From a virus, in the IMG/VR virus record IMGVR_UViG_3300042565_001021, positions 91,046-155,045 of that record: DNA of 64,000 nt; one strand, given 5' to 3'. The number at the start of each line of letters is the position of its first letter. Within the stretch, counting starts at the first letter, position 1. Both the position numbers and the translations under genes were made by a program. Shown in pieces: positions 1-49,623 of the stretch. The notes under the pieces are model-generated. The model worked only from the letters and a program-made list of their open reading frames with translations, did not search any database and was not told the origin of the DNA.

Positions 1-559
1 TCTTAAGCCATGTAAATCCTTCAGGAGTTAACCCTTCATTTTTTGAGATTTGTATTTTTACTACAGCTTTAAGACGATGTGTTACGCAGCCAATTAATGC
101 AGTAACATAACCGGGACCATTAACAAAGTTCCTAATTCCTTTTAACTCATTTCCTTTTAGTATTACTAGTGCATCAATACTGTCATCACCAATGAACGAG
201 TAGACATCTTGATCATTTATATTACAGTGATATACATCTTTACCATCTAAACTATTTACAATTTGAGATTTAGTAATTATTTGATTTTTCATATCTTGAG
301 TTATATCTAATGCAGAATGGGCGTAGTCAATTTCAGTTAACCCTTCTTCGTTTGTCATCAACTTTTTAACACGCGGCTTGAATAGCTGGACATCTCCCTT
401 ATCGGTCTTTAACACTGGCTGATTGTGCTTATCCTTCTTAAAGCCTTTGATCTCGGCAGGGCTGTTCTTAAATTTACCCTTCATTACAACATCCCCGGTT
501 TCCAATTCCGGAGGTTGGTAGGTTTCTGCACCTTCTACAATAAACTCGTTTGCTCTCAT
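1..559 (-). CDS. Hypothetical protein with capsid-targeting-like N-terminus, runs off the left edge (not in ORF track)
   Basis: ATG at 559 overlaps the stop of 556..966; reads MRANEFIVEGAETYQPPE...LMTNEEGLTEIDY... with no stop before the window edge. Confidence 0.8.
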   Translation of the reverse strand, partial: MRANEFIVEGAETYQPPELETGDVVMKGKFKNSPAEIKGFKKDKHNQPVLKTDKGDVQLFKPRVKKLMTNEEGLTEIDYAHSALDITQDMKNQIITKSQIVNSLDGKDVYHCNINDQDVYSFIGDDSIDALVILKGNELKGIRNFVNGPGYVTALIGCVTHRLKAVVKIQISKNEGLTPEGFTWLK

Positions 560-966
560 TCTTTGTTGCCACCTTTATATAGATCAGCAATACCTTTGCC
601 AAAGTCATTTCCGTTGTATATACGCATAGACGATGGGATAATATCGTTGCCTAACTCTTTAGCAAAGACATACATCTCTTTCGCAATACCTTGTCGGCGA
701 TACTCTGGCTTTACTTCGACGAATACTGCTTCTAAGTTGTTGTCTGTCACTTTGTATGTTACGTTGCCTACTTTGTTGCCTTTAGCAGTGAAGGCGTCAA
801 TGTGAAAGTTTTCGCTTGTATTAATCTTCTTAGTTGGCGAATACGGTAGCGGGCCGTGGTATGCTTTAAGCATATACTTGCCGCCGAGTATCTCTTTCGT
901 CTTTTCAAACCCGCGGCGGAATACTTGCGGGTTGATGCTGTCAGTTATGAACTCAGATGATTTCAT
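556..966 (-). CDS. GNAT-like acetyltransferase with MKSSEFITD N-terminus
   Basis: Acetyl-CoA motif A-like VEVKPEYRRQGIAKEMY. Confidence 0.7.
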   Translation of the reverse strand: MKSSEFITDSINPQVFRRGFEKTKEILGGKYMLKAYHGPLPYSPTKKINTSENFHIDAFTAKGNKVGNVTYKVTDNNLEAVFVEVKPEYRRQGIAKEMYVFAKELGNDIIPSSMRIYNGNDFGKGIADLYKGGNKE

Positions 967-1403
967 TGCACTCCTTTAATTACTAATCGCCAATCACTAA
1001 ATTTTAATCGCAACACAGTTAAGAACTGATCTTTATCTGACTCAGTCTGAAATAGTAAAGTGTTACTAAGCTTATCCCCACTAACTCGCTCACCGTCCGG
1101 AAATCGATATATCTGTCCTAAGTATTCAAAATAAAACATGTCAGTTTGATGATCTTGTAATACTACTGGACCAGAAAAGTGTTTCACTGATAATAATTTA
1201 CCAAGAGGAATAACAAGAAAACTAACTGGAGAAACCTTTGCCCCGATCTGCGGTGTAACTTGTTGCTGTTGAGCCAAGAAACTTTGAAGAATCTTAAAAT
1301 CATCATTATCCTCAAATAACTCAGGACGATCTAATAGCATAATACGGACATCCTCGTATTGCTCATCTAACACATCAATATAAGAGAACTCAGAGGATTT
1401 CAT
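963..1403 (-). CDS. Hypothetical protein (MKSSEF N-terminus)
   Basis: Overlap-coupled in operon; shared N-terminal motif. Confidence 0.7.
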   Translation of the reverse strand: MKSSEFSYIDVLDEQYEDVRIMLLDRPELFEDNDDFKILQSFLAQQQQVTPQIGAKVSPVSFLVIPLGKLLSVKHFSGPVVLQDHQTDMFYFEYLGQIYRFPDGERVSGDKLSNTLLFQTESDKDQFLTVLRLKFSDWRLVIKGVQ

Positions 1404-1825
1404 ATTTGCTGTAACACCGGAATTGATGTTAACCCTAATTCAATAGCTCGTTGCACACGGTGATTTCCGTCTATTATAAAACCATCTTTAGCTAATACCG
1501 GTGGAGTTTGAGTTAAACTTTGATAAGTAACATTTCTGGCGCGAGCCTGGTCCATTTTAAATGGATCAGAGTTAATAATATCCGTCCCTGCTTCTTGATC
1601 GCTAAACGTTCTATATCGAGATGCTTCGTCAGAACTAATATTTGTTAATTTATATTTGTGCTTAGAGATATACGTCCTATCACCTGCACCCAAATACATG
1701 TGCTCATCTAAATAATCTGCTACTACACTTCCGCGCACTATGTCACCAGGTTTGCCCCAAGCAAAGCCAACAACTCGCTTAATAAAGTCGATCAACCCCT
1801 CAGTTATGAATTCTGTCGACTTCAT
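1400..1825 (-). CDS. ParB/Srx-like domain protein (MKSTEFITE N-terminus)
   Basis: PPVL..DG.IIDGNHR...A.ELG...IPV motif; start moved to ATG 1825. Confidence 0.7.
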   Translation of the reverse strand: MKSTEFITEGLIDFIKRVVGFAWGKPGDIVRGSVVADYLDEHMYLGAGDRTYISKHKYKLTNISSDEASRYRTFSDQEAGTDIINSDPFKMDQARARNVTYQSLTQTPPVLAKDGFIIDGNHRVQRAIELGLTSIPVLQQI

Positions 1826-2235
1826 TATCTCTTCCGTGTGCAAGCAGGGTGTGAACCGTCACTCAATGATTTGCGGATTGCTTCGGAGTAGCGTGTCCAT
1901 TTCGTTAGCTCTGCGTCGCTCAGTTCCATAAAGCGATTGTCCATCTCTACCCAGGCTTTTTCAATATCCGTTAATGGTTTGTTATACTGGTATTCGTGCT
2001 CGCGGATCTTATCTTCAGCGTTGATTGCTGCTGCGCGATGCTGTACAATACACTTCTTCGCTGCTTCGCTTGCTGCACCAGAATCAAAACGGTTCTTACC
2101 TTCAAAGCGTCCAATCTCTTTGCCATCAGCAGTAGCTACGAAGGTGTTCGTTAAATCACCATCCTCGTCTTGGAGGCGGGTAATCTCATACTTTACCTTG
2201 CGAGCATCTTCTTTTAGGAATTCTTTGCTTAACAT
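1825..2235 (-). CDS. Hypothetical protein (MLSKEFLKE N-terminus)
   Basis: Coupled ORF with shared N-terminal motif. Confidence 0.7.
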   Translation of the reverse strand: MLSKEFLKEDARKVKYEITRLQDEDGDLTNTFVATADGKEIGRFEGKNRFDSGAASEAAKKCIVQHRAAAINAEDKIREHEYQYNKPLTDIEKAWVEMDNRFMELSDAELTKWTRYSEAIRKSLSDGSHPACTRKR

Positions 2236-2927: not shown

Positions 2928-2958
2928 TACTCGACATCCTTGGACATCGAGTATTTAT
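2928..2958 (-). promoter_or_regulatory. Late promoter ATAAATA overlapping an RBS-sequestering hairpin
   Basis: Minus strand ATAAATActcgatgtccaaggatgtcgagtaGTG; TACTCGA/TCGAGTA stem. Confidence 0.6.
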
Positions 2959-2962
2959 CTGT

Positions 2963-3550: not shown

Positions 3551-3617
3551 GGGTTACCTTTCAAATTGTTAAGTTATATACTAACATAACTGAATAGCAA
3601 AGGTCAATCTGTTTGGC

Positions 3618-3702
3618 ATAAATAAAAGTGCAGTTCGCGATGTTGAAGCATCCAACTGCCCTAGACTAACCAGGAGGCTATATGTCCAGCAATAATACTT
3701 AT
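3618..3702 (+). ncRNA. Conserved structured leader of endonuclease gene (copy 1)
   Basis: ATAAATA-AAAGT-GCAGTT-CGC-GATG-ttgaag-CATC-C-AACTGC...AGGAGG...ATG...TACTTAT. Confidence 0.65.
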
Positions 3703-5492: not shown

Positions 5493-5495
5493 TGA

Positions 5496-5730: not shown

Positions 5731-5991
5731 TTAGCCTTGATCCTTTTGTGCGTTAGGTTTAAGTTGCGGCTCCATTTTGATGTCGAGCTCGCGGATAGTT
5801 TCGCTTGGAAGCCAAATGCCACTCGGCACTTTTACCTGACACCCTTGCATCGGTCCCCAGCGCACAGGCAGTCCGCTGTCTTCCCACTTGCTTTGGCATT
5901 CCCACTTGGCCATTCCGTACACAAACAGGATCATAGCAGGCAGTAGAAGAATTAAAAGAATGAGCCACACGTCGCCTTTTTGCTTTTTCAT
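5731..5991 (-). CDS. Hypothetical membrane protein
   Basis: KQKG plus hydrophobic helix; GGAGG RBS. Confidence 0.65.
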   Translation of the reverse strand: MKKQKGDVWLILLILLLPAMILFVYGMAKWECQSKWEDSGLPVRWGPMQGCQVKVPSGIWLPSETIRELDIKMEPQLKPNAQKDQG

Positions 5992-6308
5992 TTGTCCTCC
6001 ACTGTGGTTAAAACTGCTCTGTCGTCTTCGACAGTTATTTCGTAGGTGTAGTCACCTTCGTCGCTCGGATGGCACAGGTAAATGTCGCCAGCGCCTTCTT
6101 TGAAGTTAGCAATCACTTGCGCGGCCAAGCAGTCCAGACCGTTAGCAAACTCGCCATCGGGCATCGTCATAGGAATTCCTTGGCCGATTGTGAAATACTT
6201 GAGATAATTTTCTAGTGTTTCTTTGAAGTCGGCTCCGTCGCAATGCTTGTAGAAAGCATACAGCGGTTTTCCTGCTTCGACAAAGCGGACCACGCAGCAG
6301 GTGCTCAT
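5988..6308 (-). CDS. Hypothetical phage protein (YxHxDG family)
   Basis: Likely start MSTCCVV; FYKHCDG...NGLDCLAAQVIA..K. Confidence 0.65.
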   Translation of the reverse strand: MSTCCVVRFVEAGKPLYAFYKHCDGADFKETLENYLKYFTIGQGIPMTMPDGEFANGLDCLAAQVIANFKEGAGDIYLCHPSDEGDYTYEITVEDDRAVLTTVEDK

Positions 6309-6309
6309 G

Positions 6310-6438
6310 CTATTCGATCCCTCGTTGTGCGTTGTGCTTCTGACGTGCGCGAGTCGCAAACTTGCCGCGCTTGACTTTGTGCTGGCCAGCGCCGCAGGTC
6401 TTTGCGTTCTTTGCGACGAAATTGCGTTGCTTAATCAT
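6310..6438 (-). CDS. Small basic protein
   Basis: MIKQRNFVAKNAKTCGAGQHKVKRGKFATRARQKHNAQRGIE. Confidence 0.55.
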   Translation of the reverse strand: MIKQRNFVAKNAKTCGAGQHKVKRGKFATRARQKHNAQRGIE

Positions 6439-6454
6439 TTTTGTCTTCTTCACT

Positions 6455-6652
6455 TTAGTCTTTGTCGGGGACGGTTTCCGCCATAACTCTTGCCTACTGC
6501 CCAGGTGCGTATACTGTACGCTGAGGTCCTGCGTCGCTGTCGATCCCGTACAGGATGTTAAGAACCCCGTAATCAGTGTTGATGTCGTCAACGTTCTCAA
6601 TGACGTCGTAGCGAGCATCGTGCGGCTTTGAGATTCTAACTGTGGTCGCCAA
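6455..6652 (-). pseudogene. Small ORF possibly interrupted by TAG (6494-6496)
   Basis: TTG start MATTVRISKPHDARYDV...VYAPGQ*ARVMAETVPDKD-TAA fills the gap between genes exactly. Confidence 0.4.
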
Positions 6653-7155: not shown

Positions 7156-7215
7156 TTGTTGCTCCGTTTTGTTAGCGTATGAGCGTATTATACAGCCATT
7201 TCGCTCAAAGGTCAA
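7156..7215 (-). promoter_or_regulatory. Early sigma70 promoter-RBS cassette
   Basis: TTGACC-17nt-TATAAT-acgctcatacgctaacaaaacGGAGcaacaaATG. Confidence 0.85.
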
Positions 7216-14236: not shown

Positions 14237-14280
14237 GTTTGTATTATACATGAAAATTTACTAAATGTCAACCAAAAAAG

Positions 14281-14358
14281 ATAAATAAGTGTGGACCACG
14301 GAGTTCGCCGCTCCCGCCCACTCTAACGCTATAAGGAGCAATCAGCATGTATATTTAT
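14281..14358 (+). ncRNA. Conserved structured leader of endonuclease gene (copy 2)
   Basis: ATAAATA-AGT-GTGGAC-CAC-GGAG-ttcgccg-CTCC-C-GCCCAC-TCTAACGCTataaggAGCaatcagcATG..TATTTAT. Confidence 0.65.
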
Positions 14359-22184: not shown

Positions 22185-22203
22185 AAGTAATGCTCCAAAA
22201 AAG

Positions 22204-28889: not shown

Positions 28890-28910
28890 GCATCCAGAGA
28901 TAAATAATGA

Positions 28911-34091: not shown

Positions 34092-34406
34092 TTATACGAT
34101 AATGCCTGGCTTACGAACCGTTTGAATACCAGTTGTCTTCTCACGGTAATGGTCAGCTAACTGATCAACTGTTTCGCCGTGGAGCATAACATGCTTCTTG
34201 TCAAGACGAATGTTTTTTCCTGCCTCAACTGAGAACAAGGCCGGCATTAAAACTATTCCGTTCTGTGACGGAACAATAGCTAACGGTGTAGTGATGGTAA
34301 AGCTATCCTCGTCGTCGCTAACCACCCTGGCTACAATCTCGTCTCCGTTTAAAATTTTAAATGAGACTATCTTCTCTGCTTCATACTTTTGTTTTTCTAC
34401 TAACAT
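34092..34406 (-). CDS. Hypothetical Sm/SH3-like protein
   Basis: IVSFKILNGDEIVARV...Y...TTGI. Confidence 0.65.
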   Translation of the reverse strand: MLVEKQKYEAEKIVSFKILNGDEIVARVVSDDEDSFTITTPLAIVPSQNGIVLMPALFSVEAGKNIRLDKKHVMLHGETVDQLADHYREKTTGIQTVRKPGIIV

Positions 34407-37044: not shown

Positions 37045-38694
37045 CTAAATTAGTGTCCGCGTTGTGACTTTAAACGTTGCTGAGTTGCCGCCTAAAGTTG
37101 ATGCGTTAGTATCGTAAGTGAGGATAACGTTGGCTCCTGACACTGACGGAACCATGCTAATACCAAAGTCAGTGGTTTCAACGTACTCATCTTCGTATGT
37201 TACATCAACACCATCTGTGGTTATCTTCATTATTCCGGTTCTCTTATCATTGACGGACGCAATTGCGTAATCAAGGATAATAGGCGCATATCCAACACCG
37301 ATAACTACTGTGTCGGTCTGATTGTCCAACAATGAAACAAAATCTAAATTGCTAGTTATCTGCCCACCAAGCTGTAGGCCACCGTTACTTAATGTCGCAA
37401 AGCCCAAGTTGTTATTAAAGTTAATAAGAATTGCATCGGTTAGTAATCTTTCTTCAAATGTGTCTCCGATACTATAGCTATTTTTACCATTGTAGTCAAT
37501 GACTGAATAGACTGCCGACCCAGGAGCAGGGCTTCCCTGACGGCCAACGTTTATGTAGCTATTGAATGCGCTAACAATGTTGACCGCGCCAGCGGTAATA
37601 GTATCTAGTTGTGTACCTGAACTAGTTGATCTGATACCTTGTCTAAACACTTCGTTGAATGTCGAATGCGTGATTCTAACTCCCGACGGCGGAACTGTGC
37701 CGCCTACGTCATTGTCTCCTACTTCGGCGCCTTGATACAACTTATGGAAGTAGCTATTAGTTATGCTTACATCTCGTACTCCATTTATACTGTTTGTAAT
37801 GTACAGACCGTACGTCGTAGCGACGAAGTCACATTGGTTAAACACTAATCTATTAGATTGCTGGGCGCCACTAACTGACGCATCTAACCTAACTCCGGCA
37901 GTACCAGACCCTACTACAACCGGCATTGTTGACCAGTCTGTAGTGAAGTGCGAATTCTGCAGAGTCCAAGTCGTATACTGAAAGCGGACTCTCGAAAAAT
38001 AACCATCTTGCACGCCGTCAAACTTAACGATATCTCTAGTATTAGAAGTATGCGCGATAGTTAAATCTTCAATTTCTATATTGCCTCGCGTAATACCTGG
38101 GACCTCAACTGCTACTAATGCGCTTGTTTCGGCAGCATCGGTTTGAATAATAAACGTAGAATTTTTTCCGTCACCTTTTAACTTTACGTAAGGTAGCATT
38201 CTGATTACATCACCAGTTAAAACGTATGTACCTGCTGGAATATGTAACGTGCGACGAAGTCTTGGATTTGCTACTAAACTATTTGATAATCCAGCTTCCA
38301 TATGAAGCTCAGTTATTGCGCGATTAAACGCATCTACATCGTTTGTATCCCCATCTCCCACTCCGCCAAAATCTCTAAAATTAACTATGTCATCGAATTT
38401 GTTTTGCATCGAGCGCTCTGCCGGAGCAAGAGCACTGGGACCAGTCTGTACTGCATACCCGCCAGCTTCCTCACCGCGAAATGTGTACCCGCTTTCGAAG
38501 TCTAGGATATTGCTTTCAGTGGTTAAAATTTCAGTATTGCCGATTTGTGGAGCACCTTCTGTCGTGTCACCGTTGCCAATGAAAAGCTGACGCGTATCTA
38601 AGCACCAGCCAAGTTCTGCGCTTGCTAGTGGTCGTGGAAGGTCGTTGTAAAGTCCTCTACGGGACTGAATACGGGAGATTTGAAGAATAGCCAA
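37045..38694 (-). CDS. Virion/tail protein with pectate-lyase-like beta-helix
   Basis: N-terminal I..RRG...LP...AELGW..D...LFIGNG; DFGGVGDG..D..AF..AI...PAGTY. Confidence 0.75.
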   Translation of the reverse strand: MAILQISRIQSRRGLYNDLPRPLASAELGWCLDTRQLFIGNGDTTEGAPQIGNTEILTTESNILDFESGYTFRGEEAGGYAVQTGPSALAPAERSMQNKFDDIVNFRDFGGVGDGDTNDVDAFNRAITELHMEAGLSNSLVANPRLRRTLHIPAGTYVLTGDVIRMLPYVKLKGDGKNSTFIIQTDAAETSALVAVEVPGITRGNIEIEDLTIAHTSNTRDIVKFDGVQDGYFSRVRFQYTTWTLQNSHFTTDWSTMPVVVGSGTAGVRLDASVSGAQQSNRLVFNQCDFVATTYGLYITNSINGVRDVSITNSYFHKLYQGAEVGDNDVGGTVPPSGVRITHSTFNEVFRQGIRSTSSGTQLDTITAGAVNIVSAFNSYINVGRQGSPAPGSAVYSVIDYNGKNSYSIGDTFEERLLTDAILINFNNNLGFATLSNGGLQLGGQITSNLDFVSLLDNQTDTVVIGVGYAPIILDYAIASVNDKRTGIMKITTDGVDVTYEDEYVETTDFGISMVPSVSGANVILTYDTNASTLGGNSATFKVTTRTLI

Positions 38695-39452: not shown

Positions 39453-39857
39453 TTATGCTCGATTATCAGACGCAGAATGTGCCATAGATTTAACGACTTC
39501 GGTTGGGTCTTGCTCGTGTCCGCCGGTTTCTTCTTCGTCGTCTCCAAATTCTTCGTCGTCGAGTTCAGATTCGGACTTAAATTCTACTGTATCGCGGTTA
39601 AAGTTCTTGATCAAAGCTTTTACTGCTTCGTCGTTTTCGTATGCGTCAACTAGCGTTTCGTAAGTGAAGGTATTGTCACCGGCATTTTGAACAAGCTGGA
39701 TTAAGCTGTTAGTGCGCAACTTAGTTGGGACTTCTTTATCGTCACCGCGCTTCTTCAGGTACATTAGCACAGGAAGAAGGTTTGTTGAAAGAGATCCTTC
39801 TCCGGCTAGTTGTTCTTCTGGGCTTACGTCTTCTCGGATGATTTCGTTGATTTTCAA
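39453..39857 (-). CDS. Hypothetical acidic protein (MKINEIIRE N-terminus)
   Basis: TTG start at 39857; C-terminus V.SMA.SA resembles that of the next gene. Confidence 0.7.
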   Translation of the reverse strand: MKINEIIREDVSPEEQLAGEGSLSTNLLPVLMYLKKRGDDKEVPTKLRTNSLIQLVQNAGDNTFTYETLVDAYENDEAVKALIKNFNRDTVEFKSESELDDEEFGDDEEETGGHEQDPTEVVKSMAHSASDNRA

Positions 39858-39858
39858 T

Positions 39859-40317
39859 TTATATCCCGCGATCGCGGCTGGCAGCACGACCAGCCATGCC
39901 ACCTACAGTAGCATCCTTCTCTTTAGCTTGCTTGTTTGGATCTTCATTCTTGACTGACATGTTCTTAAACTTGATTTTCTTGTCGTCAATGCTGTCGATC
40001 ATGCTGCGGATTTCCGGTGACTTCTTGTTGATAGCGATTAGATCAGCTAGATTAACTGGCTTCTTAGCAAGCTCAATTACTTTAGATATAAAAGGTAGGA
40101 TTTCAACTTGTGCGTGGCCTTGACCTTTGTATTCGTCACATACCCGCTTAACAGCATTGATCATCTTCGTGTCAGCGTTAGACGAAAGTTCCATTTCTGG
40201 CTCATTGAAATTGTCTAGACCAGGATCTTCTAAATCTACAGACGGTTCCGGAAAATCGTCATCTGCCCAGTTAATGTCGGCATCTAAACCTTCGACAATA
40301 ATTTCGTTAATCTTCAT
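39859..40317 (-). CDS. Hypothetical protein (MKINEIIVE N-terminus)
   Basis: Paralogue-like of 39453..39857 (V..MA..A end). Confidence 0.7.
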   Translation of the reverse strand: MKINEIIVEGLDADINWADDDFPEPSVDLEDPGLDNFNEPEMELSSNADTKMINAVKRVCDEYKGQGHAQVEILPFISKVIELAKKPVNLADLIAINKKSPEIRSMIDSIDDKKIKFKNMSVKNEDPNKQAKEKDATVGGMAGRAASRDRGI

Positions 40318-40319
40318 GC

Positions 40320-41048
40320 TTAACGTCTTTCTCGCCCTAATTCTTCTGGGCCGCCTGCTGCTGCATCCATTGCATCAAACCCGTCGCCTTCTGCCGGTGG
40401 CTCTTCCATGCCCATATCGTCGCCTGCCATTGGGTCTGCCCCCATCGTCGGGTCTGCTCCCATGCCGCCTGCCATTGGATCAGCTGGCATACCCATTGGA
40501 GCTGCTGCGCCTTCGCCTGTTAGTGCACGAGCTGCGCCATCTAGCTGCTCGCGTGTTTGTCCTAGTGTGCCAGACAACGTTGTTAGGACCTGCCCGACTG
40601 ATGCCTTAAACGCTTCTGCTTGCTCCATACCAATTTGATCACGGATGGAATCGATTAGTGCCGGTAGCTGCTCGTTCTGCATCTTACCAACTTTCTCGAT
40701 CATGTCTTGTGCTGTGTCGACCATGTCTTTAGCAGCAAGAATGGCTTCTGCTTGACCGAGCTCACCTTCTTTAAGCTTACGGCGTTGCTGCTGGCCTTTA
40801 TACGCATCGATCCAGCGTGATAGCCCTTCGTAAACGATAAGCATCTCTAGGTACTGCGGATTCTTCTCGGCAGTATGGATAGCACTTGATTTGCGAATAG
40901 AGTTTACTGTCTCCATAATCTTATTGCGCATAGCTTGTGCTTTTGGCAATGTGATGGAGTCATAATCTAGCTTAAACCCGAATCTCGACTCGGTAACTTT
41001 GTTTAATTTCTTCATCGAAGGCTTGTTTGTCATGTCAGTTAGTTTCAT
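40320..41048 (-). CDS. Possible prohead core/scaffold-like protein
   Basis: Helical, LKE site, low-complexity MGADP/acidic tail; function inferred. Confidence 0.4.
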   Translation of the reverse strand: MKLTDMTNKPSMKKLNKVTESRFGFKLDYDSITLPKAQAMRNKIMETVNSIRKSSAIHTAEKNPQYLEMLIVYEGLSRWIDAYKGQQQRRKLKEGELGQAEAILAAKDMVDTAQDMIEKVGKMQNEQLPALIDSIRDQIGMEQAEAFKASVGQVLTTLSGTLGQTREQLDGAARALTGEGAAAPMGMPADPMAGGMGADPTMGADPMAGDDMGMEEPPAEGDGFDAMDAAAGGPEELGRERR

Positions 41049-41065
41049 TTTAGAATTCCTAAGTC

Positions 41066-41563
41066 CTATATTATGTATTTAGCCTTAACAAGAATTTTTT
41101 CTAATTCTTGTTTGGCCTTCGTTAACCTATCCTTTGCGTCTGCGTATCTACTACTAAACAAATCGATCTTAAAGCTGTCGTGGCAAAAGTGAGCATTGTC
41201 TAGCTTTACTCTAAATGTTGCTTTTTCTACATCTAACTTCCCTACAAAGCTGTCTAACTCATGTAGCTCTTTTGCTTCGGAGATCCTTAATACATGAACT
41301 AACGCACAATAAACAATGGCACTTCTTTTATCTACAAACTCCAAGTCTCCAACCTTCCAACATACTTGCGAGACTTTTGTTACCTTCTTTGTTCCTACCG
41401 TGTAGTCTCCGTTTGCTAGTTCTACTGCTACTGGGTACCTACTTGTTTGCTGTAATTCAGCTAAAGCTTTTGCTGTCCAGCTTGCTACCCGCTGATAGCC
41501 ATAATCTACTATCGGCGTCGTGTTATCTAATTTTTTTGGAGTATGTGATTTTGCCTTCAACAT
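41066..41563 (-). CDS. Hypothetical protein
   Basis: Operon ORF. Confidence 0.65.
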   Translation of the reverse strand: MLKAKSHTPKKLDNTTPIVDYGYQRVASWTAKALAELQQTSRYPVAVELANGDYTVGTKKVTKVSQVCWKVGDLEFVDKRSAIVYCALVHVLRISEAKELHELDSFVGKLDVEKATFRVKLDNAHFCHDSFKIDLFSSRYADAKDRLTKAKQELEKILVKAKYII

Positions 41564-41735
41564 TCTTTTTCCTGGTTAGTACCTCTTTGGATACAAGTTG
41601 GTTTGCTAAGAGCTGTTCTCTTGGTTCTAGGTCTGACTTTAGTATAGTAGCATCTTCGTTAAACTTACTCAATACTTCGGCTTCCTCGTTGTTTAAGGGC
41701 AAATTCAATCCGGTTAAAAGTTCGACTATTTTCAT
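41523..41735 (-). CDS. Hypothetical small protein
   Basis: ATAAATA 4 nt before the ATG. Confidence 0.65.
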   Translation of the reverse strand: MKIVELLTGLNLPLNNEEAEVLSKFNEDATILKSDLEPREQLLANQLVSKEVLTRKKNVEGKITYSKKIR

Positions 41736-41750
41736 TCAGTATTTATGCTG

Positions 41751-42185
41751 CTAGATTGAAAACGGTTCAAAGTATATATTGGTATTTGGACCAGATACTA
41801 TAAAGGTCGGCACCGGTATTGCTACCGTTTCGTCTAGCCCTGTAATAACTGGAACATTAACAAAGTCTGCTTCTAGTGTTCCATATGGTCTGGATGACCC
41901 CTTAAACACATCTTCCTGCTCTGTGCTAAACTTAAATGTCCAAACGCTCTGAACTCCTGCGTAGTTACTTCCGAAACTAGACCCTGTTACATCTAAGCTA
42001 ACAATTTGTGGATCACTAAGCGTTAATAGTTGCGTTCTTAAGGAGAGAACTTGAACTAAGGTCTCAAAATTTCTTTGCTGATTTCTTTCTTTTGTCTGGA
42101 CCGAGGCGACTATGTTTGTTTGGGTAATATCAACTAACGAGTAGCCGATGTTCATTCTTAAAAGTATTGCGTCGGAACTTAACAT
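41751..42185 (-). CDS. Hypothetical late protein
   Basis: YSLVDIT.T...NQQRNFET; late promoter upstream. Confidence 0.65.
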   Translation of the reverse strand: MLSSDAILLRMNIGYSLVDITQTNIVASVQTKERNQQRNFETLVQVLSLRTQLLTLSDPQIVSLDVTGSSFGSNYAGVQSVWTFKFSTEQEDVFKGSSRPYGTLEADFVNVPVITGLDETVAIPVPTFIVSGPNTNIYFEPFSI

Positions 42186-42210
42186 TGTGTACTATTTATG
42201 GGCCGTAAAA

Positions 42211-42234
42211 ATAGGGACTTAGAAAAGTCCCTAT
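42211..42234 (-). terminator. Intrinsic terminator
   Basis: ATAGGGACTT/AAGTCCCTAT stem plus T-run. Confidence 0.7.
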
Positions 42235-42253
42235 CTTTAGTTTGTTACTTGGA

Positions 42254-42634
42254 TTAAGCTAGTTTGAATGCTGCTGTAGCTGCTGTAGTAGCGCCTAAGA
42301 CAACACCATTAACAGTTCCAAGACCTTGGATTGCTGTTTGTAGGTCACCGTCTGTCCAACCAGTTGCGTCAACTGCTACGCTTAGAATCAAACCACCTGT
42401 TGCTAAACAATATGCAACTGTAGATGCCTTAACTTGGATTGTACGTAGAATTGCTTCGATTGTTCCACCTGTTCCAAACTGTGCTGTGTTGTCTGCTGCA
42501 AGTGTAACCTTGTAGAATGTTAGACCACGACCGACTACTGAGATTGTTTGATTAATGGAAGCTGCGCCTGTTTCAGCGATATCAACGTTTGATACACCAG
42601 CTGCGGTTCCATGTACACGAGTAACTTCTGCCAT
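42254..42634 (-). CDS. Small virion structural protein
   Basis: A/T/G-rich; own late promoter, strong AGGAG RBS and terminator. Confidence 0.6.
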   Translation of the reverse strand: MAEVTRVHGTAAGVSNVDIAETGAASINQTISVVGRGLTFYKVTLAADNTAQFGTGGTIEAILRTIQVKASTVAYCLATGGLILSVAVDATGWTDGDLQTAIQGLGTVNGVVLGATTAATAAFKLA

Positions 42635-42716
42635 TTTATTTCTCCTAATTTAAAGTACAGCTCAAATGCTGCATACTTTTATTTAGTCCAGATTACGAAA
42701 ATCACCGTTTTCGTGG

Positions 42717-44624
42717 TTAGAATTCGTCGGATCCTAACACGGCCGGCCCATACCATTCTGTTACCCTGTGTTTATTCTGTCTGTTAATACGTGTTATCAT
42801 TTCGTTTATTGATTCTTTAACGGCTTTTGGCGTAGCTAAACACACTAAGTCGTCGTGTTGATTAAACACCTCCGATGGTGTTATATTAGGTAATACTTCG
42901 TTACTAATTAGATTATATCCACATACTGTGTATCGACCATGCCTGTATAGTTTTTCCCAAAGCCCTTTACTACCGCCTAGACCACCCTCAGTTAAATTTG
43001 TGTCTGACAAAACTGATAATCCGTCATTCATTATAGCATAGTCATACAAGTAAGTTCCGAATCCTTGCGACTTATACTTTTCTTCAATTTGTACTAATCT
43101 AACCTGCCACAAAGAACTATTATATTTTTCTAATTGTAAAAGACCAACTAACGTATTACGTATCGGAGATTGAGGATCAAATAACCCGTAGTATAGCTCG
43201 TCCCCTTTTGTAATCTTTTTTAACTCTAATCCGTGAACTTCGTGAATAACAGGTGTACCTAGTGGAAAATATGTAGATTTGTATGAGATATCGTTGTCCC
43301 TAATAGGGCTCGTAATTGCTTCCAATGTTAGGTCTTCGTCTTCCTTGTTTCTTTCATAGTCACGAAGCTTATCGAAGTATCCGTTGTTCCTTATTGTCTT
43401 AAAGGCCAGGTTCTCAACGCTAAACTCGCCTTCGCGCTCTAGTCCCGCCCTACGCATTCTGCGGATGTGTTCCCACAGGTCGTCAATTTCTTGTTGGTCA
43501 GTCTCAGAGGCATCACTGATAAGCAAGTCTATCTGCTGCATAATGCCTTCTGCTTTAGCTTGGACGTTGCTGTCGTCATACGTCGGTTTCTCGTATGTTG
43601 GTTTCTTAATCCATTCGTCGTGATACAACGAGTAGATACCGTTTGCTACGAGTTGATTTTCTTTCGCATTGACGTCTTCCGCATAGAGCTCAACGTTGAA
43701 CCCTTTAACTGTGATTTCGTGTCCGGAGTTCCAGAGGGACTTTTTAGCCCGTAGGAAGGGTTCGGTGAGAGGGTTTTCTTCTCCCAGCTTTCGCGCATCA
43801 ACCAATACGTGTAAATCCAGATCGGACTGGCTAGTGTAATTGTATCCGCAATTGCTTCCCGTAATAATGTAATCGACGATTCTGATTTGTTCGACATCAA
43901 TGAACTCCGAAAACTTGTTTGCTATTTTAGCTAGTGCGTCTTTAACGTCTGACTTTAGTTCTTCACCATCCCATAGTGCTGGGTTAAGGGTATCGCTGTA
44001 TGCTAGTTTAGTATCAACAAACTCGCGTATTGGTTGTCGTGTAGGTTCAACGCTCTCTACCTTGTAGGATTGTTTGAACCACAAGTAAATATCAACGTTG
44101 CCTGCTCGCTTATCAAATTCGCGACGTAAGATCTGAGTAAGTTGTACTTTGTTAGAATAAGTAAGATTATCCCAGTTACCGACGTCGCGGCGCAGTTGCC
44201 TAAACAGGGCATTGCTTTGTATGCGCAAGTATTCCTCAAGCTTCCAAAAGAACGTTGCGTCGTCGCTGTTGCTTTTCTGCCTTGACCTAATGTTTTGTAG
44301 ATAGCGATTGATCTGGAACAACGGAATAGACACCCTGTCGTTTACTTTGATATAGTGCTTGAACGTGTCCTGGTTGTTCAGAATTGCTAATAGGTTACCT
44401 AAGTCGGTTCCGGCGTAGTGTGTGTTGTCGTATGTGTTATAGACTAGCGTTTGATCAGCGTACCTAGACATAAGGTCTCTGTCAGATATACGATACACTT
44501 CGATCATCATAAAAATCAGGTAAATGATGCCTGCGATTTCCTCAGCAGACTTACCTTTAACGTTATCCGGGCCAAAGAACATGCGTGCTTCATATAAATA
44601 TTCAATAAAAGGAAGTTTTAACAT
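42717..44624 (-). CDS. Multidomain protein: helical N-terminus + nucleotidyltransferase + GNAT-like domain
   Basis: ITGSNCGYNY..SDLDLH; C-terminal WQVRLVQIEEKYKSQGFGTYLY. Confidence 0.65.
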   Translation of the reverse strand: MLKLPFIEYLYEARMFFGPDNVKGKSAEEIAGIIYLIFMMIEVYRISDRDLMSRYADQTLVYNTYDNTHYAGTDLGNLLAILNNQDTFKHYIKVNDRVSIPLFQINRYLQNIRSRQKSNSDDATFFWKLEEYLRIQSNALFRQLRRDVGNWDNLTYSNKVQLTQILRREFDKRAGNVDIYLWFKQSYKVESVEPTRQPIREFVDTKLAYSDTLNPALWDGEELKSDVKDALAKIANKFSEFIDVEQIRIVDYIITGSNCGYNYTSQSDLDLHVLVDARKLGEENPLTEPFLRAKKSLWNSGHEITVKGFNVELYAEDVNAKENQLVANGIYSLYHDEWIKKPTYEKPTYDDSNVQAKAEGIMQQIDLLISDASETDQQEIDDLWEHIRRMRRAGLEREGEFSVENLAFKTIRNNGYFDKLRDYERNKEDEDLTLEAITSPIRDNDISYKSTYFPLGTPVIHEVHGLELKKITKGDELYYGLFDPQSPIRNTLVGLLQLEKYNSSLWQVRLVQIEEKYKSQGFGTYLYDYAIMNDGLSVLSDTNLTEGGLGGSKGLWEKLYRHGRYTVCGYNLISNEVLPNITPSEVFNQHDDLVCLATPKAVKESINEMITRINRQNKHRVTEWYGPAVLGSDEF

Positions 44625-45232
44625 TAGATACCTTTATGCATTGCGATAACATGCTTATTTAATTGTGGCCAGGAAAATTCTTTCCTACAATATAAACAAC
44701 TGCATTTTTCAAATCTACGACCAATATTCGGGTCAACGTATCCTTCTTGTGCGTTTCTTATCTTAATAGTTGCTTTTCGGCGAGCAATGACTTCCTCAGA
44801 TAACGGTTGTCCTTTATTGATTGGTGCTCTGCCAGTTTTAATTCCTTTTCGTCCACTTGGTTTACCCCTAATAGGTGATATCCTTCCTTTTAAGCTGCCG
44901 CCACCTAATCCGTTTTCAACTACTATATTAGCCCAAATCGGGGAGTCAACAATATTTTCTCGAATTGAAAAACTAACTGCAAATTCTTTTAAATCCACCT
45001 TATCATAGAATAAGCAATACCAGAGGGTAATCACATGCTCTGCTCCAAATTCGTTAAGGTGCTTGAGCCATTCGGTGCCCGACCCTAAATATTTTTCAAC
45101 ATTAGTATCGGTCCTATAGGTTTTGCCGAAATATAACTTACCAGTTATTGTATGCTGCTTTATAAATAGATAGGTTGGTCTCAAAGTTTGTTGTTGGCGA
45201 AGCGGGCTCGAATAAATACCTTTGCTGGACAT
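44624..45232 (-). CDS. Free-standing GIY-YIG-like homing endonuclease
   Basis: PTYLFIKQH.ITGKLYFGKT...YLGSG..W..HL; C-terminal CSCLYC; start moved to ATG 45232 after GGGAG. Confidence 0.8.
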   Translation of the reverse strand: MSSKGIYSSPLRQQQTLRPTYLFIKQHTITGKLYFGKTYRTDTNVEKYLGSGTEWLKHLNEFGAEHVITLWYCLFYDKVDLKEFAVSFSIRENIVDSPIWANIVVENGLGGGSLKGRISPIRGKPSGRKGIKTGRAPINKGQPLSEEVIARRKATIKIRNAQEGYVDPNIGRRFEKCSCLYCRKEFSWPQLNKHVIAMHKGI

Positions 45233-45310
45233 ACTAATCTCCCTGATTAAATAATTATGTCTAGAGCAAGCAGATGTTGATGCATCGTGGCTTGCACTAA
45301 TCGTATTTAT
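45212..45310 (-). ncRNA. Conserved structured leader of endonuclease gene (copy 4)
   Basis: ATAAATA-CGATTAGT-GCAAGC-CAC-GATG-catcaa-CATC-T-GCTTGC-TCTAGAC...GGGAG..ATG..TATTTAT. Confidence 0.6.
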
Positions 45311-45366
45311 CCAAGGTAGTATCCGTGCCTCTGTTAACTCTTCTTTAATGAACGGTAGCAGAGACA

Positions 45367-46506
45367 TCAATGATTTCCGAAGTTAGCTGCGCTAAAGTGT
45401 AAGCGATTGACGAGCTTGATGTAACCGCCTTCATCGAACAATACATATCCCTCGCCTCCACGCTCGCCATTGATATGAGCATAGACGCCGTTGTTGTTAT
45501 TGTCGAGCTGGCCAATGATATCGTGTTTTAAGCTAGTAACTGCGTCAAATACGTTAAAGATAGCCTTCAGTCCTGCTGGGTTTGCTTTAATGTACTCTTG
45601 AACCTTGGCAACCATTGGTTTAGACAGCTTAGGATTTTGTTGGACCCAGGTTCCAAACTTTGATGCCAGGTTATCCAGGTCGCGGATCTTAGTTTGCTGG
45701 TTAACAAATGTATAAAGCATATCAGGTAACCCAGACATCTTGTTAGCTTGAAGCGTTTCTGTGTTTAAGAACCCGTCAATTGCCTTGGCGTTCTTCCTGA
45801 CATAATCAGTTGTCTCTTTAAACTTACGCTTGTCCATCTGTACATCGCCTTGTACCTTAATCTCCGGGCCTAATACGCAGAGCTGGCTGTTAATGTTAAG
45901 TCCTGCTGTTGTTTTTAGCGGCTCAGGCACCTTATCTTCTGTTGTTTTACAGTAGCCGTGCACTGCGAAGCCAGCTTGCCCTTGTCCAACACGATGACCA
46001 AGCTCTGTTGTCTTATCGATCTCGTATTTTGTAGTACCTTCGCCAAACACAAACGACTTACCGTTGTCCTGTAAGTTACCAGGCCACCACATTACGTCGC
46101 CTTTGACAAATCCTTTGTAACCCGGCGGAAACGCTGATTCCATAATTGGCCACAATGCTGCTATCTTGCTTAGGAATTCTTCGTTTCCGCCCTTGCTGCG
46201 CTTCTGGGCCAAGAAGTCTTTCACAGAAGTGTACAGCCCGTTGTATCCTTTAGCTGTCCATCCTGCCATATCTGTCATAATAAACGTACCACTAACGTCG
46301 CGGCCTGCGAACAAAGCAACTTGTCCATCCCACTTAATAGTAAGGGCAGTATCTCTTGTTTTAGGCAGATGCTTGAAGCTGTTAATCACACGTAATGCTC
46401 CAGCACTACCTTCGTAGAAGATGATGTCTTCAGCGTGGGCCATTCCTACTTCGTTTAGTTTGAAGGTAGGCTTCCTGTTTTCTACAATAATTTCACTTAT
46501 TTTCAT
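45367..46506 (-). CDS. Ligase-like nucleotidyltransferase-motif protein (MKISEIIVE N-terminus)
   Basis: TIKWDG, KGD, GEGYV, KLVNR. Confidence 0.55.
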   Translation of the reverse strand: MKISEIIVENRKPTFKLNEVGMAHAEDIIFYEGSAGALRVINSFKHLPKTRDTALTIKWDGQVALFAGRDVSGTFIMTDMAGWTAKGYNGLYTSVKDFLAQKRSKGGNEEFLSKIAALWPIMESAFPPGYKGFVKGDVMWWPGNLQDNGKSFVFGEGTTKYEIDKTTELGHRVGQGQAGFAVHGYCKTTEDKVPEPLKTTAGLNINSQLCVLGPEIKVQGDVQMDKRKFKETTDYVRKNAKAIDGFLNTETLQANKMSGLPDMLYTFVNQQTKIRDLDNLASKFGTWVQQNPKLSKPMVAKVQEYIKANPAGLKAIFNVFDAVTSLKHDIIGQLDNNNNGVYAHINGERGGEGYVLFDEGGYIKLVNRLHFSAANFGNH

Positions 46507-47188
46507 TATAAGAAATTTCCGTCATGTAAGCACTAACATCATCGTAATACCCAGGCCTGTCGTCGTCATCGTCTACGTTAGACTTAACTAAGTAGTATCC
46601 GTCGGGCGCATGTATCATTACTTCGTTCTTGCTTTTAATTGCTTCTTGTAACCCATCAGTTCTGTATCCGCTATCTTCAAGAACAGCTATTACGTCTTCA
46701 GCATAGGCTTCTTTGTTAAATTCCTGAGTAGGAAAACTGTTGGGGTATAGAGGATCGGCAACTGTCATATAATAGTAGGACATCTCAAGATGTCCTACTT
46801 TGCTATATGTTAAATCAGATACGTCTGGTGACCAGCATATCGTAAATTCTCCGATCGGAAACAATATGTGGGCAGCACCGTACTCTGTAGATTGAATCGC
46901 ATCGTTGCAAGCAAATGTAGCATTTGACCTAAATCGGATTCCAAACTTCTTTAAGAAATAGTCGTCGCATATCTGATGTAACTCAAGAGGAGTATCTAAC
47001 GGCGTACGGTTAACTGGCAACGGTTGAAACGAAAAATTCGGTAGTCTTTTACGAACTCCGCGATATAACTTATTATAGGAAGGATCCCCAAGCTGAGACA
47101 GATACGGATTACAATCGGTTAAGATTTTAATCGCAGCATCTTTAGCTTTTACTCCAACTGCTTCGAGGATAATTTCGGCTACTTTCAT
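46493..47188 (-). CDS. ART-like paralogue (MKVAEIILE N-terminus)
   Basis: LYRG...R.PLDTP...FRSNATFA...YG...FPIG...CWSP..DL...NEVM. Confidence 0.5.
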   Translation of the reverse strand: MKVAEIILEAVGVKAKDAAIKILTDCNPYLSQLGDPSYNKLYRGVRKRLPNFSFQPLPVNRTPLDTPLELHQICDDYFLKKFGIRFRSNATFACNDAIQSTEYGAAHILFPIGEFTICWSPDVSDLTYSKVGHLEMSYYYMTVADPLYPNSFPTQEFNKEAYAEDVIAVLEDSGYRTDGLQEAIKSKNEVMIHAPDGYYLVKSNVDDDDDRPGYYDDVSAYMTEISYNENK

Positions 47189-47204
47189 GGTATCGTATTT
47201 ATCC

Positions 47205-47849
47205 TTACTGGACTGGCCAAGGTCCGCCAAGAAACAGGGCCTTGTACATCTTTCTTCCATCAGCGTACCATCCTTGGTCGCGCATTAGCGCATACATGTC
47301 GAGTATGTAATACGACTTACAGTAGATCATAATCTCTTTGTATGAAAACACCGCAGTAGTTAAGTCTTCGTTAAGCTTGTATTCAGCACGGTCCATTGAA
47401 TCATACACCTCTTCAGCAATCTCTCTTGCTGAGAGCTTTTGCCCGGTTAGATGATGAAATTGATCGGTCAAATCACGAACTTTGTGCGACCAGCAGTAAT
47501 CGAATTGTCCTATCGGAAACACCATAAAAGGCGTACCAAACGACGAAGCCGATCCTTCCGACCCTGTTGTGAATATAGTATGCTGCTGTCTGAACGGGAT
47601 CTTAAACTTCTTATTCAAGTAAGACATCATGTATGTGTTAATGATAGCCGGAGTATCGCGAGGACTACGAAATTGTTCAGTCGCCACTGTGGAAAAGATA
47701 GTACCTGCGTTTCGAGCATGAGATAATCCACGCCACATTGGTTCTTCACATTGTGATAAGAAAGGTTGGCAGCTTCGTTTAATTTGCGAAACTACTCCAT
47801 CTGCATCAACGCTTCCTAATGCTTCTGTTAATACCTCACAGACTTTCAT
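47205..47849 (-). CDS. ART-like paralogue (MKVCEVLTE N-terminus)
   Basis: MWRG...RSPRDTP...FTT...FG...FPIG..YCWS..DL...EIM. Confidence 0.5.
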   Translation of the reverse strand: MKVCEVLTEALGSVDADGVVSQIKRSCQPFLSQCEEPMWRGLSHARNAGTIFSTVATEQFRSPRDTPAIINTYMMSYLNKKFKIPFRQQHTIFTTGSEGSASSFGTPFMVFPIGQFDYCWSHKVRDLTDQFHHLTGQKLSAREIAEEVYDSMDRAEYKLNEDLTTAVFSYKEIMIYCKSYYILDMYALMRDQGWYADGRKMYKALFLGGPWPVQ

Positions 47850-48601
47850 CTGACTAAAATGTTCTGTATCTGCCTGAACCAACTCGGCGACCCTGCCGGA
47901 GCAGACTCAGGTAAGCGGAGTAGGTTCTTTTTAGCAGCTTCTCTTGCTTGTGCTAGCTTCTCTTCTTTTCGTGGATCGTTTGCTAATGCTTTCAGTATCG
48001 TCTTCACTGACGCAAGGTCAGCTCCAGTAGCATTAGGGTTTAACAAGATCTTCGCTACTGCGTCCTTGTCATTGGCAACTACTTCATTCGTCGTACGATC
48101 TACTAACTTTCCTTCAAACGGACTAAACTTTAGGCCTAAAGCTTTTGCTATAGATGAATACAGAATAAACAGCTCTCCACCCTTAAACTCTGGGTCGTTG
48201 TATTGTCCTGATAGTCCGTGCTGGTGAAACGGTGCTACTCGGCTTGCGTCTGGAATGACCATTACATCAACTTGAACAAAGGATCCATCAGGGACTGGCA
48301 TACGAACGTGAACGTTGCGACCAGAAAGCGCACATTGAAACCCTTTAGCTTCGATAAACTTACGCAATGCTACCTTAGCTTGCTTTTCGTCTTTAGCGTT
48401 AAAGAACTGCTGTATTTCAGCAGCATCTACGAACACATCCATGTCACCAGATTCTACCTTATAGCCGGCTGAGCCAATGTGAGGTATGATCTTAATACCG
48501 TCCGGCATCAGACCTTGTATGTCATTGATGATCTTTGGAACGTATTCCTTCTTAATCGCAGTTACATCATCAAATACGTTACCACCTTCTGTTAAAATCA
48601 T
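47846..48601 (-). CDS. Pol-beta-superfamily nucleotidyltransferase-like protein
   Basis: IGSAG...SGDMDVFVD...VQVDVM. Confidence 0.6.
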   Translation of the reverse strand: MILTEGGNVFDDVTAIKKEYVPKIINDIQGLMPDGIKIIPHIGSAGYKVESGDMDVFVDAAEIQQFFNAKDEKQAKVALRKFIEAKGFQCALSGRNVHVRMPVPDGSFVQVDVMVIPDASRVAPFHQHGLSGQYNDPEFKGGELFILYSSIAKALGLKFSPFEGKLVDRTTNEVVANDKDAVAKILLNPNATGADLASVKTILKALANDPRKEEKLAQAREAAKKNLLRLPESAPAGSPSWFRQIQNILVR

Positions 48602-49623
48602 TTCTTAGGCTTCCTTACACTCCACGGCACTCCACCGGCCGATTCGGCAGTAGCGGGTTCTCTAGTTTTCTGTCTAGCAGGATTATAAGCCGACGGTGCA
48701 GGAGCTGGCGCAAAAGTAGGCATAGGGGCAGGATTGCGTGTGTTTGTTTTTACTGTTGGCGCATTAGCTTTCCATCCAGTATTATAGCTCGGAGCAGGTG
48801 CAGCAGCAGGCACAGGCGGAGGAACTGAAGCGGCAGGAGCAGCAACTACTTCGGGCTCAGCGTAATCAGGATTGTTGTACTTGTTCCATGTGTTTAACTG
48901 TTGCTGGTATCTCTTCTTGTATTCTTTTACTTCGCGTGGATTTGCTCCGGCCGGGATTTCTAGCTTAGGCTTTGTTGATGTGGATGCAGTATTTTGAGCC
49001 AACATCTGATTAGCTATTGTTTCATAGGACGGATCCCCCGGTTTTAACGGTTTCTGCCCTTTTCCTACTACAATCGGGTCACCGTGCTTAAATGTAGCAG
49101 GAATCGCAGCAGGAATCGCAGCAGGAGTCGCAGGTGTGTATTCGATGTCTGGCAACTCTCTTTTTCCAGTGGTTGCCGCTGGTTCAGCTGCAGGAGCAGG
49201 AGCAGGTTCAGCTGCAGGAGCAACAGGTTCAGCTGCAGGAGCAGTGGCCTTTTTAGCTCTTGCTTGTACCGGAGTGCCTAATCGCTCTAAGTTTGCTGCA
49301 TTGAGAATATACTGAAGAACATTATTTGGATCGTTTGCTCCAACTAACTTACCTTTTGTGTATTTGCCACCCAGGTACTTCTCTAGGTACCTGTCCAGGT
49401 GACCTTTAATTTGATTATCCGTAGAGTTAGCTGGAATAGAAGGAGCAATTTCAGTTTGCCACCTTTTTAGAATATCGTTTGCCCAGTCATTAATGTTTCC
49501 TTTTGCCATACCAGTCCTAAAGTTGGCTGCTCCTTTACCGGACGGCATACCTGCAATGCCGGCGCCAACTGCTTTTACAGTATCCCAGAATCCCTCGTTT
49601 ATCACTATCTCGTTAACCTTCAT
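48598..49623 (-). CDS. Pro/Ala-rich protein (MKVNEIVINE N-terminus)
   Basis: APAAEP repeats near 49180-49245. Confidence 0.7.
   Translation of the reverse strand: MKVNEIVINEGFWDTVKAVGAGIAGMPSGKGAANFRTGMAKGNINDWANDILKRWQTEIAPSIPANSTDNQIKGHLDRYLEKYLGGKYTKGKLVGANDPNNVLQYILNAANLERLGTPVQARAKKATAPAAEPVAPAAEPAPAPAAEPAATTGKRELPDIEYTPATPAAIPAAIPATFKHGDPIVVGKGQKPLKPGDPSYETIANQMLAQNTASTSTKPKLEIPAGANPREVKEYKKRYQQQLNTWNKYNNPDYAEPEVVAAPAASVPPPVPAAAPAPSYNTGWKANAPTVKTNTRNPAPMPTFAPAPAPSAYNPARQKTREPATAESAGGVPWSVRKPKK

Follow-up and report, generated by a model that had tools for sequence, protein, structure and literature searches.

A 64,000-nucleotide stretch of viral DNA (the window), comprising bases 91046 to 155045 of the 155,045-bp IMG/VR virus contig IMGVR_UViG_3300042565_001021 (CheckV completeness of 44%), encodes a large set of mostly unrelated proteins that begin with the same nine-residue leader, M-[KR]-x-x-E-[FI]-[IL]-x-E, followed by a small residue. 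We consider it likely that this shared N terminus is a portable propeptide of the phage T4 type, which would target proteins to the assembling capsid and be removed there by a prohead protease, in a phage that is known here from its genes alone. The principle is known from T4; what is new is the size of the tagged set, the enzymes among its cargo, and the fused precursors in which some of these enzymes occur. The particle probably holds an unusually large protein cargo, one whose composition can be predicted from sequence.

A leader shared by about 25 genes

A preliminary description of the window listed 18 proteins with a T4-like N terminus, and every one of them was recovered in place, 17 on the minus strand and one on the plus strand (start at 28911). 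Two of these genes have non-ATG starts (GTG in the gene starting at 2927, TTG in that starting at 39857), both backed by orthologues. About 14 of the 18 N termini fit the full consensus, and the leaders of the genes starting at 1403, 35002, 41735, 44624 (MLKLPFIEYLYE), and 48601 (MILTE) are partial or divergent, the same forms being kept in their orthologues. A scan of all possible starts over the whole contig adds 7 tagged genes upstream of the window, one encoding 822 residues, for a total of about 25, with the consensus on about 20 proteins and partial forms on about 5.

Position by position, the 20 clear cases read M1, K/R2, (I/A/S/V)3, (N/S/T/K)4, E5, F/I6, I/L7, (T/V)8, E9, and G/A/S/D10, and they occur in two flavors, MK(I/V)xE(I/V)I and M(K/R)(A/S)xEFI. 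The leader ends in the motif (I/L)-x-E, with Glu at position 9 in 15 of the 20 tags and Ile or Leu at position 7 in 15 of the 20; gp21, the prohead protease of T4, cuts after the Glu of I/LxE motifs (PMC12991175).

The strict motif starts 15 of 254 open reading frames (ORFs), compared with ~0.3 expected among 1752 candidate starts given its rate away from N termini of 1.8e-4 per residue (Poisson P of ~2e-20), and a chance origin of the shared start is rejected on this ground. A degenerate DNA pattern for the leader has 10 matches on the contig, 9 of them on the gene strand, and its reversed control has 0. Synonymous codon choice at the conserved positions is unconstrained (AAA/AAG/AGA/CGA, GAA/GAG, TTT/TTC, and ATT/ATC/ATA), and selection therefore acts on the peptide rather than on the RNA. 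That the protein bodies are unrelated, as first described, is largely borne out: run without the first 12 residues of each protein, BLAST detects no more than two small groups of paralogues, which qualify the claim, and the two tagged bodies that were modelled differ in fold (PolX-like in protein B, ligase-like in protein C). Pure paralogy was rejected on the BLAST comparison of bodies together with the retention of the leader among homologues of protein C (see below).

Tagged genes form tandem arrays at contig positions 86553 to 93972 and window positions 39453 to 49623. The tagged genes and motif sites of the window are as follows (window coordinates unless stated).

2-559, minus strand: tagged gene, MRANEFIVE-G, cut by the window edge (complete gene, 261 aa, contig 90819-91604)
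556-966, minus strand: tagged gene, MKSSEFITD, 136 aa, with sub-threshold GNAT matches
963-1403, minus strand: partly tagged gene, MKSSEFSYIDVLDE, 146 aa, a paralogue of contig gene 27748-28209
1400-1825, minus strand: tagged gene, MKSTEFITE-G, 141 aa, with DGNHR at the C terminus and a weak ParB-like match
1825-2235, minus strand: tagged gene, MLSKEFLKE-D, 136 aa
2235-2927, minus strand: tagged gene (GTG start), MKSSEFITE-V, 230 aa, first of its array and a paralogue of the genes starting at 47188 and 47849
2952-2959, minus strand: GATAAATA, late-type promoter-like motif heading the array from 2927 down to 2
19409-19996, minus strand: tagged gene, MKSNEFTPE-A, 195 aa, with one sub-threshold GNAT match
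28899-28906, plus strand: GATAAATA motif directly 5' of the gene starting at 28911
28911-29684, plus strand: tagged gene, MRANEFIIE-G, 257 aa, with a weak PHROG match to T7 gp0.7-like kinase
34400-35002, minus strand: partly tagged gene, MKIDEIEMVG, 200 aa (orthologues start MKINEIEL)
39453-39857, minus strand: tagged gene (TTG start), MKINEIIRE-D, 134 aa (orthologues begin with ATG, MKISEIICE)
39859-40317, minus strand: tagged gene, MKINEIIVE-G, 152 aa
41523-41735, minus strand: partly tagged gene, MKIVELL, 70 aa, matching phrog_16215 ("virion structural protein"), with CATAAATA at 41740-41747
42717-44624, minus strand: gene with divergent leader, MLKLPFIEYLYE-AR, 635 aa (orthologues start MKxLPFIxELxEAR), possibly NTP_transf_2 (a lead only)
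45367-46506, minus strand: protein C, MKISEIIVE-N, 379 aa, DUF6267, with the ligase-like nucleotidyltransferase motifs KxDG, GGEGYV, and KLVNR
46493-47188, minus strand: tagged gene, MKVAEIILE-A, 231 aa, with GATAAATA at 47196-47203
47205-47849, minus strand: tagged gene, MKVCEVLTE-A, 214 aa
47846-48601, minus strand: protein B, short leader MILTE-GGN, 251 aa, predicted Pol-beta superfamily nucleotidyltransferase
48598-49623, minus strand: protein A, MKVNEIVINE-G, 341 aa, fused to protein B in relatives
49882-49889, minus strand: GATAAATA motif heading the array from 49862 down to 47849, just downstream of the DnaB-like helicase gene

Conservation of the leader and fused precursors

The contig is a member of the giant T4-superfamily phages, and its DnaB-like helicase shares ~51% identity with the helicase of Pseudomonas jumbo phage PA5oct and 45% with the one in Agrobacterium phage Atu_ph07. 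Orthologues of the tagged genes in related IMG/VR contigs retain the leader while the bodies are 25 to 75% identical, and one orthologue switches between the MKIxEII and MRAxEFI flavors among relatives (e.g., MKISEIIVE, VRASEFITE, and MRAKEFIIE). Among full-length homologues of the DUF6267 enzyme, protein C, 102 of 106 begin with M[KR]xx[ED][FILV], down to 33% identity. Across this family, the leader stands 16 to 70 residues from the first motif of the fold (HxED), the linker varies in sequence and length, and a second conserved L-x-E lies immediately before the fold. Residues 1 to 22 are disordered in the AlphaFold model of protein C (predicted local distance difference test [pLDDT] score of 89). 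Because cyanophage versions of the DUF6267 enzyme have no leader, we regard the leader as an add-on. A 400-kb ENA contig also encodes a DUF6267 protein (P0004), which is 84% identical.

In several relatives, proteins A and B form a single ORF with the joint ...KLLE-SMITE-GGNVF or ...TLTE-GGNVF, and in another group of relatives, proteins B and C form a single ORF of ~640 residues with the joints GMTPLVE-E, GMTIIVE-N, GMMVIVE-D, GYTPLIE-Q, and MQSLVE-A. At these joints, the N-terminal half of the leader is gone and (I/L)-x-E is retained, with no Met at the joint in two instances (L047 and L015), as expected if cleavage at this element releases the modules. Their joining in one precursor suggests that the PolX-like and ligase-like modules act together. 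Fused ORFs of 530 to 650 residues lie at L005:1307-2891, L040:4039-5995, L047:11554-13468, and L048:7262-9122.

The DNA pattern has 8 strict matches in each of the closer relatives, G001 and G002 (helicase identities of 76% and 67%, respectively), all on the gene strand and partly in tight arrays, compared with 0 to 2 in the more distant PA5oct, G003, G004, and G007, and the expansion of the tag thus appears specific to this sub-lineage. A protein-level scan of G006 yields ~5 plausible tagged genes.

Predicted cargo

Searches of the tagged bodies against Pfam, PHROG, and PDB sequences were mostly empty. Of the cargo classes initially proposed, the nucleotidyltransferases are well supported, by motifs and structural matches of proteins B and C. 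Protein B has the signature IGSAGxKVESGDMDV, in which G43, G46, S51, G52, D53, and D55 are invariant and S44 and A45 nearly invariant, and thus combines the catalytic signature hG[GS]...DxD with a Pol-beta-like palm. Its model (pLDDT of 80) matches Pol lambda and Pol mu in Foldseek (E = 3e-6; probability of 1.0; template modeling score of 0.45 to 0.50). As modelled, protein B is a PolX-like nucleotidyltransferase of the Pol-beta superfamily, with Pol lambda and Pol mu as its closest structures.

Protein C has the motifs of a covalent nucleotidyltransferase, KxDG and later EG-type and K-x-K-type motifs: over 55 homologues, K58, D60, and G61 of motif I are invariant and W59 nearly invariant, GGEGYV (residues 350 to 355) is invariant, and so are K364, V366, and R368 of KLVNR (residues 364 to 368). 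RNA or DNA ligases make up nearly all of its best VIA-align rows, with middling Z scores of 4.7 to 6.2 and root mean square deviations of 4.3 to 5.5 over 156 to 199 residues, and Foldseek returns no match with an E value of <=0.001. From its motifs, protein C is predicted to be a ligase-like nucleotidyltransferase, possibly with the adenylyltransferase fold. For the 635-residue protein, NTP_transf_2 was suggested by a language-model lead only, and the same protein atlas gave nothing for the 822-residue protein.

The remaining classes fared less well. GNAT matches (genes 556-966 and 19409-19996) are all sub-threshold, the kinase (28911-29684) has a weak PHROG match only, the ParB-like protein (1400-1825) has a weak match together with its DGNHR motif, and the tagged bodies, searched against Pfam, PHROG, and PDB sequences, gave no support for an ART-like enzyme. 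The gene immediately downstream of the tagged kinase-like one is untagged and encodes a 393-residue protein (29681-30862, plus strand) with an AAA_33/Zeta-toxin-like P-loop kinase domain and a T7 gp0.7-like kinase region.

Leaders beside the head genes of related phages

PA5oct encodes an S77 protease in a T4-like gene order (portal, 73-residue protein, acidic 270-residue protein, protease, coiled-coil scaffold-like protein, and major head protein). The 73-residue protein begins MKINDIITE-G; its annotation is that of a structural protein found by tandem mass spectrometry with electrospray ionization (ESI-MS/MS). Another ~25 contigs, retrieved through the PA5oct protease, have in the same position a gene beginning MK(A/S)(K/R)(E/D)LL(V/T)E-F, and neighboring small genes often have the same type of start; 2 of these contigs are complete genomes of ~363 kb. 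Across PA5oct and these contigs, the small protein between the portal and the S77 protease has 66 to 79 residues.

Among PA5oct genes beginning M[KR]xx[ED][FILV], 6 of 11 are flagged as detected by ESI-MS/MS, compared with 93 of 461 (20%) overall (binomial P = 0.012). Mass spectrometry of PA5oct virions comes from a paper that contains no discussion of processing or of late promoters (PMC7318152). The 70-residue protein of the window (41523-41735) was considered as an orthologue of PA5oct gp333 and dropped, as the two do not align.

In some relatives (L155 and L158, ~5983-6630), the S77 prohead protease itself begins MRQNQILSE or MRPSQILTE, and such a leader-like N terminus ending in L-x-E would fit self-processing.

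Promoter context

The tagged genes were originally placed mostly under ATAAATA promoters, which holds for the order of motifs and fails for their proximity: [GCT]ATAAATA is the nearest upstream promoter-like motif in 22 of 23 minus-strand tagged genes, with a sigma-70-like motif nearest in 0, but the motif lies within 100 nt of only 4 tagged genes. For untagged genes, [GCT]ATAAATA is nearest in 69 and a sigma-70-like motif in 73 (Fisher P = 6e-7 versus tagged genes). The relevant motif, [GC]ATAAATA, stands at the heads of gene arrays; ATAAATA as such is 2 times more common on the gene strand, with a peak 23 to 35 nt upstream of starts, and sigma-70-like sites show no excess in the 39- to 50-kb cluster. 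The [GCT]ATAAATA-type motif also precedes the tail-spike-like gene (37045-38694) and homing-endonuclease genes. By analogy with T4, the ATAAATA-type motif would be the late promoter of this lineage.

Copies of [GC]ATAAATA at 3617-3624, 14280-14287, 22203-22210, 55352-55359, and 59362-59369 (plus strand) lie 60 to 70 nt 5' of each plus-strand free-standing endonuclease gene, and these genes appear to share their promoter type with the tagged arrays.

Comparison with known systems

In the T4 record, ipII and ipIII both begin MKTYQEFIAE, the sequence that the preliminary description gave for T4 internal proteins. The capsid targeting sequence (CTS) of T4 IPII and IPIII and its removal by gp21 were reportedly described by Mullaney and Black in 1996, with reviews in PMC3012670 and PMC5694885. 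That CTS and the leader of the window are both N-terminal elements of ~10 residues with the core E-F-I-x-E, both end in (I/L)-x-E, and both occur on unrelated proteins; the window phage, too, belongs to the T4 superfamily and has relatives with an S77 protease, and its tagged genes are associated with a late-type TATAAATA-like motif. Unlike the CTS, the leader of the window is one residue shorter and has two interchangeable flavors. It has at least 25 carriers on 44% of a genome, whereas T4 has 3 strict 10-mer EFI-type matches genome-wide (ipII, ipIII, and gp61.1), and its cargo, whose packaging is predicted from genes, includes enzymes of 130 to 820 residues, whereas T4 cargo consists mostly of small basic proteins. 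To judge from these sequences, the device is the same in form as that of T4 and used ~10 times more widely.

All internal head proteins of T4 join the prohead core through a CTS of 10 to 20 residues that is later removed (PMC5694885, PMC3012670). The hypervariable internal-protein loci of T-even phages encode diverse anti-restriction proteins with only the CTS in common (PMC3012670). They resemble the arrays of small, fast-changing, mutually unrelated genes sharing only the leader that occur at contig positions 86553 to 93972 and in G001 and G002; the arrays of the window phage are longer, and phage family and host differ. T4 Alt is likewise a packaged enzyme that is trimmed at its N terminus, and it is a gp21 substrate, as are gp67 and gp68 of the prohead core. 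The starts of gp67 (MEGLIE-A) and gp68 (MLLIPE-T) resemble the short leaders of protein B (MILTE-G and MKLxE-GGN), and the small protein at the gp67/gp68 gene position in PA5oct-like phages has the full tag; in sequence, no homology to T4 Alt, gp67, or gp68 emerged.

The phiKZ-like giant phages, such as SPN3US, have head and ejection proteins with long propeptides (PMC5694885, PMC10052503). There, too, a prohead protease related to that of T4 processes many of the proteins inside the head, and the propeptides are thought to target the prohead, but they mostly exceed 100 residues, have sites of the A/S/G-x-E type, and include no single short portable leader. In the published literature that we searched, descriptions of a CTS concern T4 alone, with phiKZ-like phages added by analogy.

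Two leader-like starts stand out in other phages. T4 gp61.1 (NC_000866, 18966-19130; L116), a 54-residue hypothetical protein encoded beside the primase gene, has an MKTFKEFIKE start that is nearly a copy of the ipII/ipIII CTS, and it may be an unrecognized head-internal protein. In Synechococcus phage S-WAM1, a cultured cyanophage, a "cytidyltransferase" (L117:3706-4761) encoded beside an untagged DUF6267 homologue begins MRFRQFIIEA, a T4-like leader.

Interpretation and alternative explanations

If the leader works as in T4, it would bind the tagged proteins, late in infection, to the scaffolding core of the assembling prohead, and the shell would then enclose them. A prohead protease of the gp21 family (Peptidase S77) would cut after the Glu of (I/L)-x-E, leaving the mature proteins in the head with the DNA, with which they would probably leave at infection; they might conceivably serve host takeover or counter-defense there, as initially proposed. 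The lineage would have expanded this device from a handful of internal proteins in T4 to 25 proteins or more, encoded on 44% of a genome, in arrays behind [GC]ATAAATA, and in some relatives the PolX-like and ligase-like enzymes would be made as fused precursors with the cutting motif at the joint. Capsid targeting, as proposed at the outset, draws indirect but independent support from the T4-like form of the leader, its (I/L)-x-E end, its conservation among orthologues, the fusion joints, the head-gene cluster of relatives, the enrichment among PA5oct virion proteins, and the promoter association.

Several points weigh against capsid targeting. A Peptidase_S77 search of the whole 155-kb contig (44% of the genome) found no prohead protease gene, a Gp23 search of the whole contig found no full capsid gene, and neither was found on five related fragments. 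The complete relatives G006 and G007 have the S77 protease, and its presence in the window phage is predicted from relatives whose helicases are only ~50% identical to its own. As a promoter, TATAAATA was rejected, with 11 sites versus 10 in the control and hence no enrichment, and the late role of the ATAAATA-type motif is drawn from T4 by analogy. Of the 18 listed N termini, four or five match the motif by half; protein B has an invariant Glu followed by an equally invariant GGN, and its short "leader" may be part of the enzyme itself. Finally, several tagged bodies, including proteins B and C, resemble enzymes of DNA metabolism or processing and adjoin helicase and primase genes, the DUF6267 homologues of cultured T4-like cyanophages lack the leader, and 5 of the 11 PA5oct proteins with a leader-type start were undetected in virions.

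These last three observations, together with the start of T4 gp61.1, a small protein encoded beside a primase gene, also speak for a different reading, in which the leader serves to sort or regulate proteins destined for some place other than the capsid (as a degron, as a zymogen-type leader cut off by a cytoplasmic protease, or as a dock for an assembly engaged in replication or repair) and its likeness to T4 is that of one short amphipathic peptide to another; the untagged cyanophage homologues of protein C, for example, would fit cytoplasmic enzymes for which the leader has some other use. We think this unlikely, given that the same start is found clade-wide on the small protein between portal and prohead protease, a protein present in PA5oct virions, that the end of the leader obeys the gp21 cutting rule, which fusion joints retain, that the tagged genes lie behind late-type rather than early-type promoter motifs, and that none of the annotated replication proteins in the window (ribonucleotide reductase [RNR], DnaB, primase, helicases, and ATPase) carries the tag.

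Two further explanations were considered. The conserved start might be a feature of translation initiation, an A/T-rich, weakly structured 5' coding region that aids genes with poor Shine-Dalgarno sites in long operons: 32% of tagged genes have a Shine-Dalgarno match of at least 4 bases, compared with 55% of others, their codons 2 to 9 are 70% A+T, compared with 61% over all ORF starts, and many of them overlap the stop of the preceding gene. Conservation at the level of residues, with free synonymous variation and base-changing K/R and F/I exchanges, makes this very unlikely, as does the persistence of (I/L)-x-E inside fused proteins, where initiation is not needed and where L047 and L015 lack a Met at the joint; nor have Glu 9 and the small residue 10 an obvious role in initiation. 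Hardly credible is a functionless remnant left by common descent or by recombination of neighboring genes, in which tandem duplicates have diverged except in their first codons. Many tagged genes do stand in tandem arrays, and a few are detectable paralogues, but the tag occurs on bodies of different folds and on dispersed genes of both strands (19996 and 28911), and it is held by nearly all DUF6267 homologues while the adjoining linker varies.

Capsid targeting thus remains the best explanation. Should the leader function as in T4, sequence would reveal directly what the virions of a large group of uncultured giant phages carry. The tagged set would then list candidate injected effectors (PolX-like, ligase-like, GNAT-like, and kinase-like) for testing against bacterial defenses, the T4 protein-packaging tool would extend to other phage chassis, and the internal-protein device of T4 would be ancient and clade-wide, found in PA5oct-like jumbo phages beside the gene for the protease, and expanded ~10-fold in one lineage. 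A bolder version, which we regard as doubtful, holds that several dozen capsid-loaded enzymes, including the PolX-like and ligase-like proteins as an end-processing and end-joining pair, are injected to mend incoming DNA or protect it against host nucleases; such a prepackaged repair kit would be a counter-defense principle undescribed for phages.

Other features of the window

Replication and nucleotide-metabolism genes of the window encode RNR, the DnaB-like helicase, primase, further helicases, and an ATPase, and the window also encodes the tail-spike-like gene (37045-38694), free-standing homing-endonuclease genes, and numerous small ORFs. A Megablast search of a 3.8-kb piece against phages gave no match. 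The sole Gp23 match on the contig covers 30 residues within a 113-residue ORF (G000:C1:68363-68452; L001) and is not a capsid gene. An early-type promoter cassette, (A)TGGCTGTATAATACGCTCATACGCTAAC, recurs ahead of two different small genes on the minus strand (~7160-7200 and 26050-26090), and similar TGTATAAT boxes head many small ORFs at 4 to 14 kb and 23 to 28 kb.

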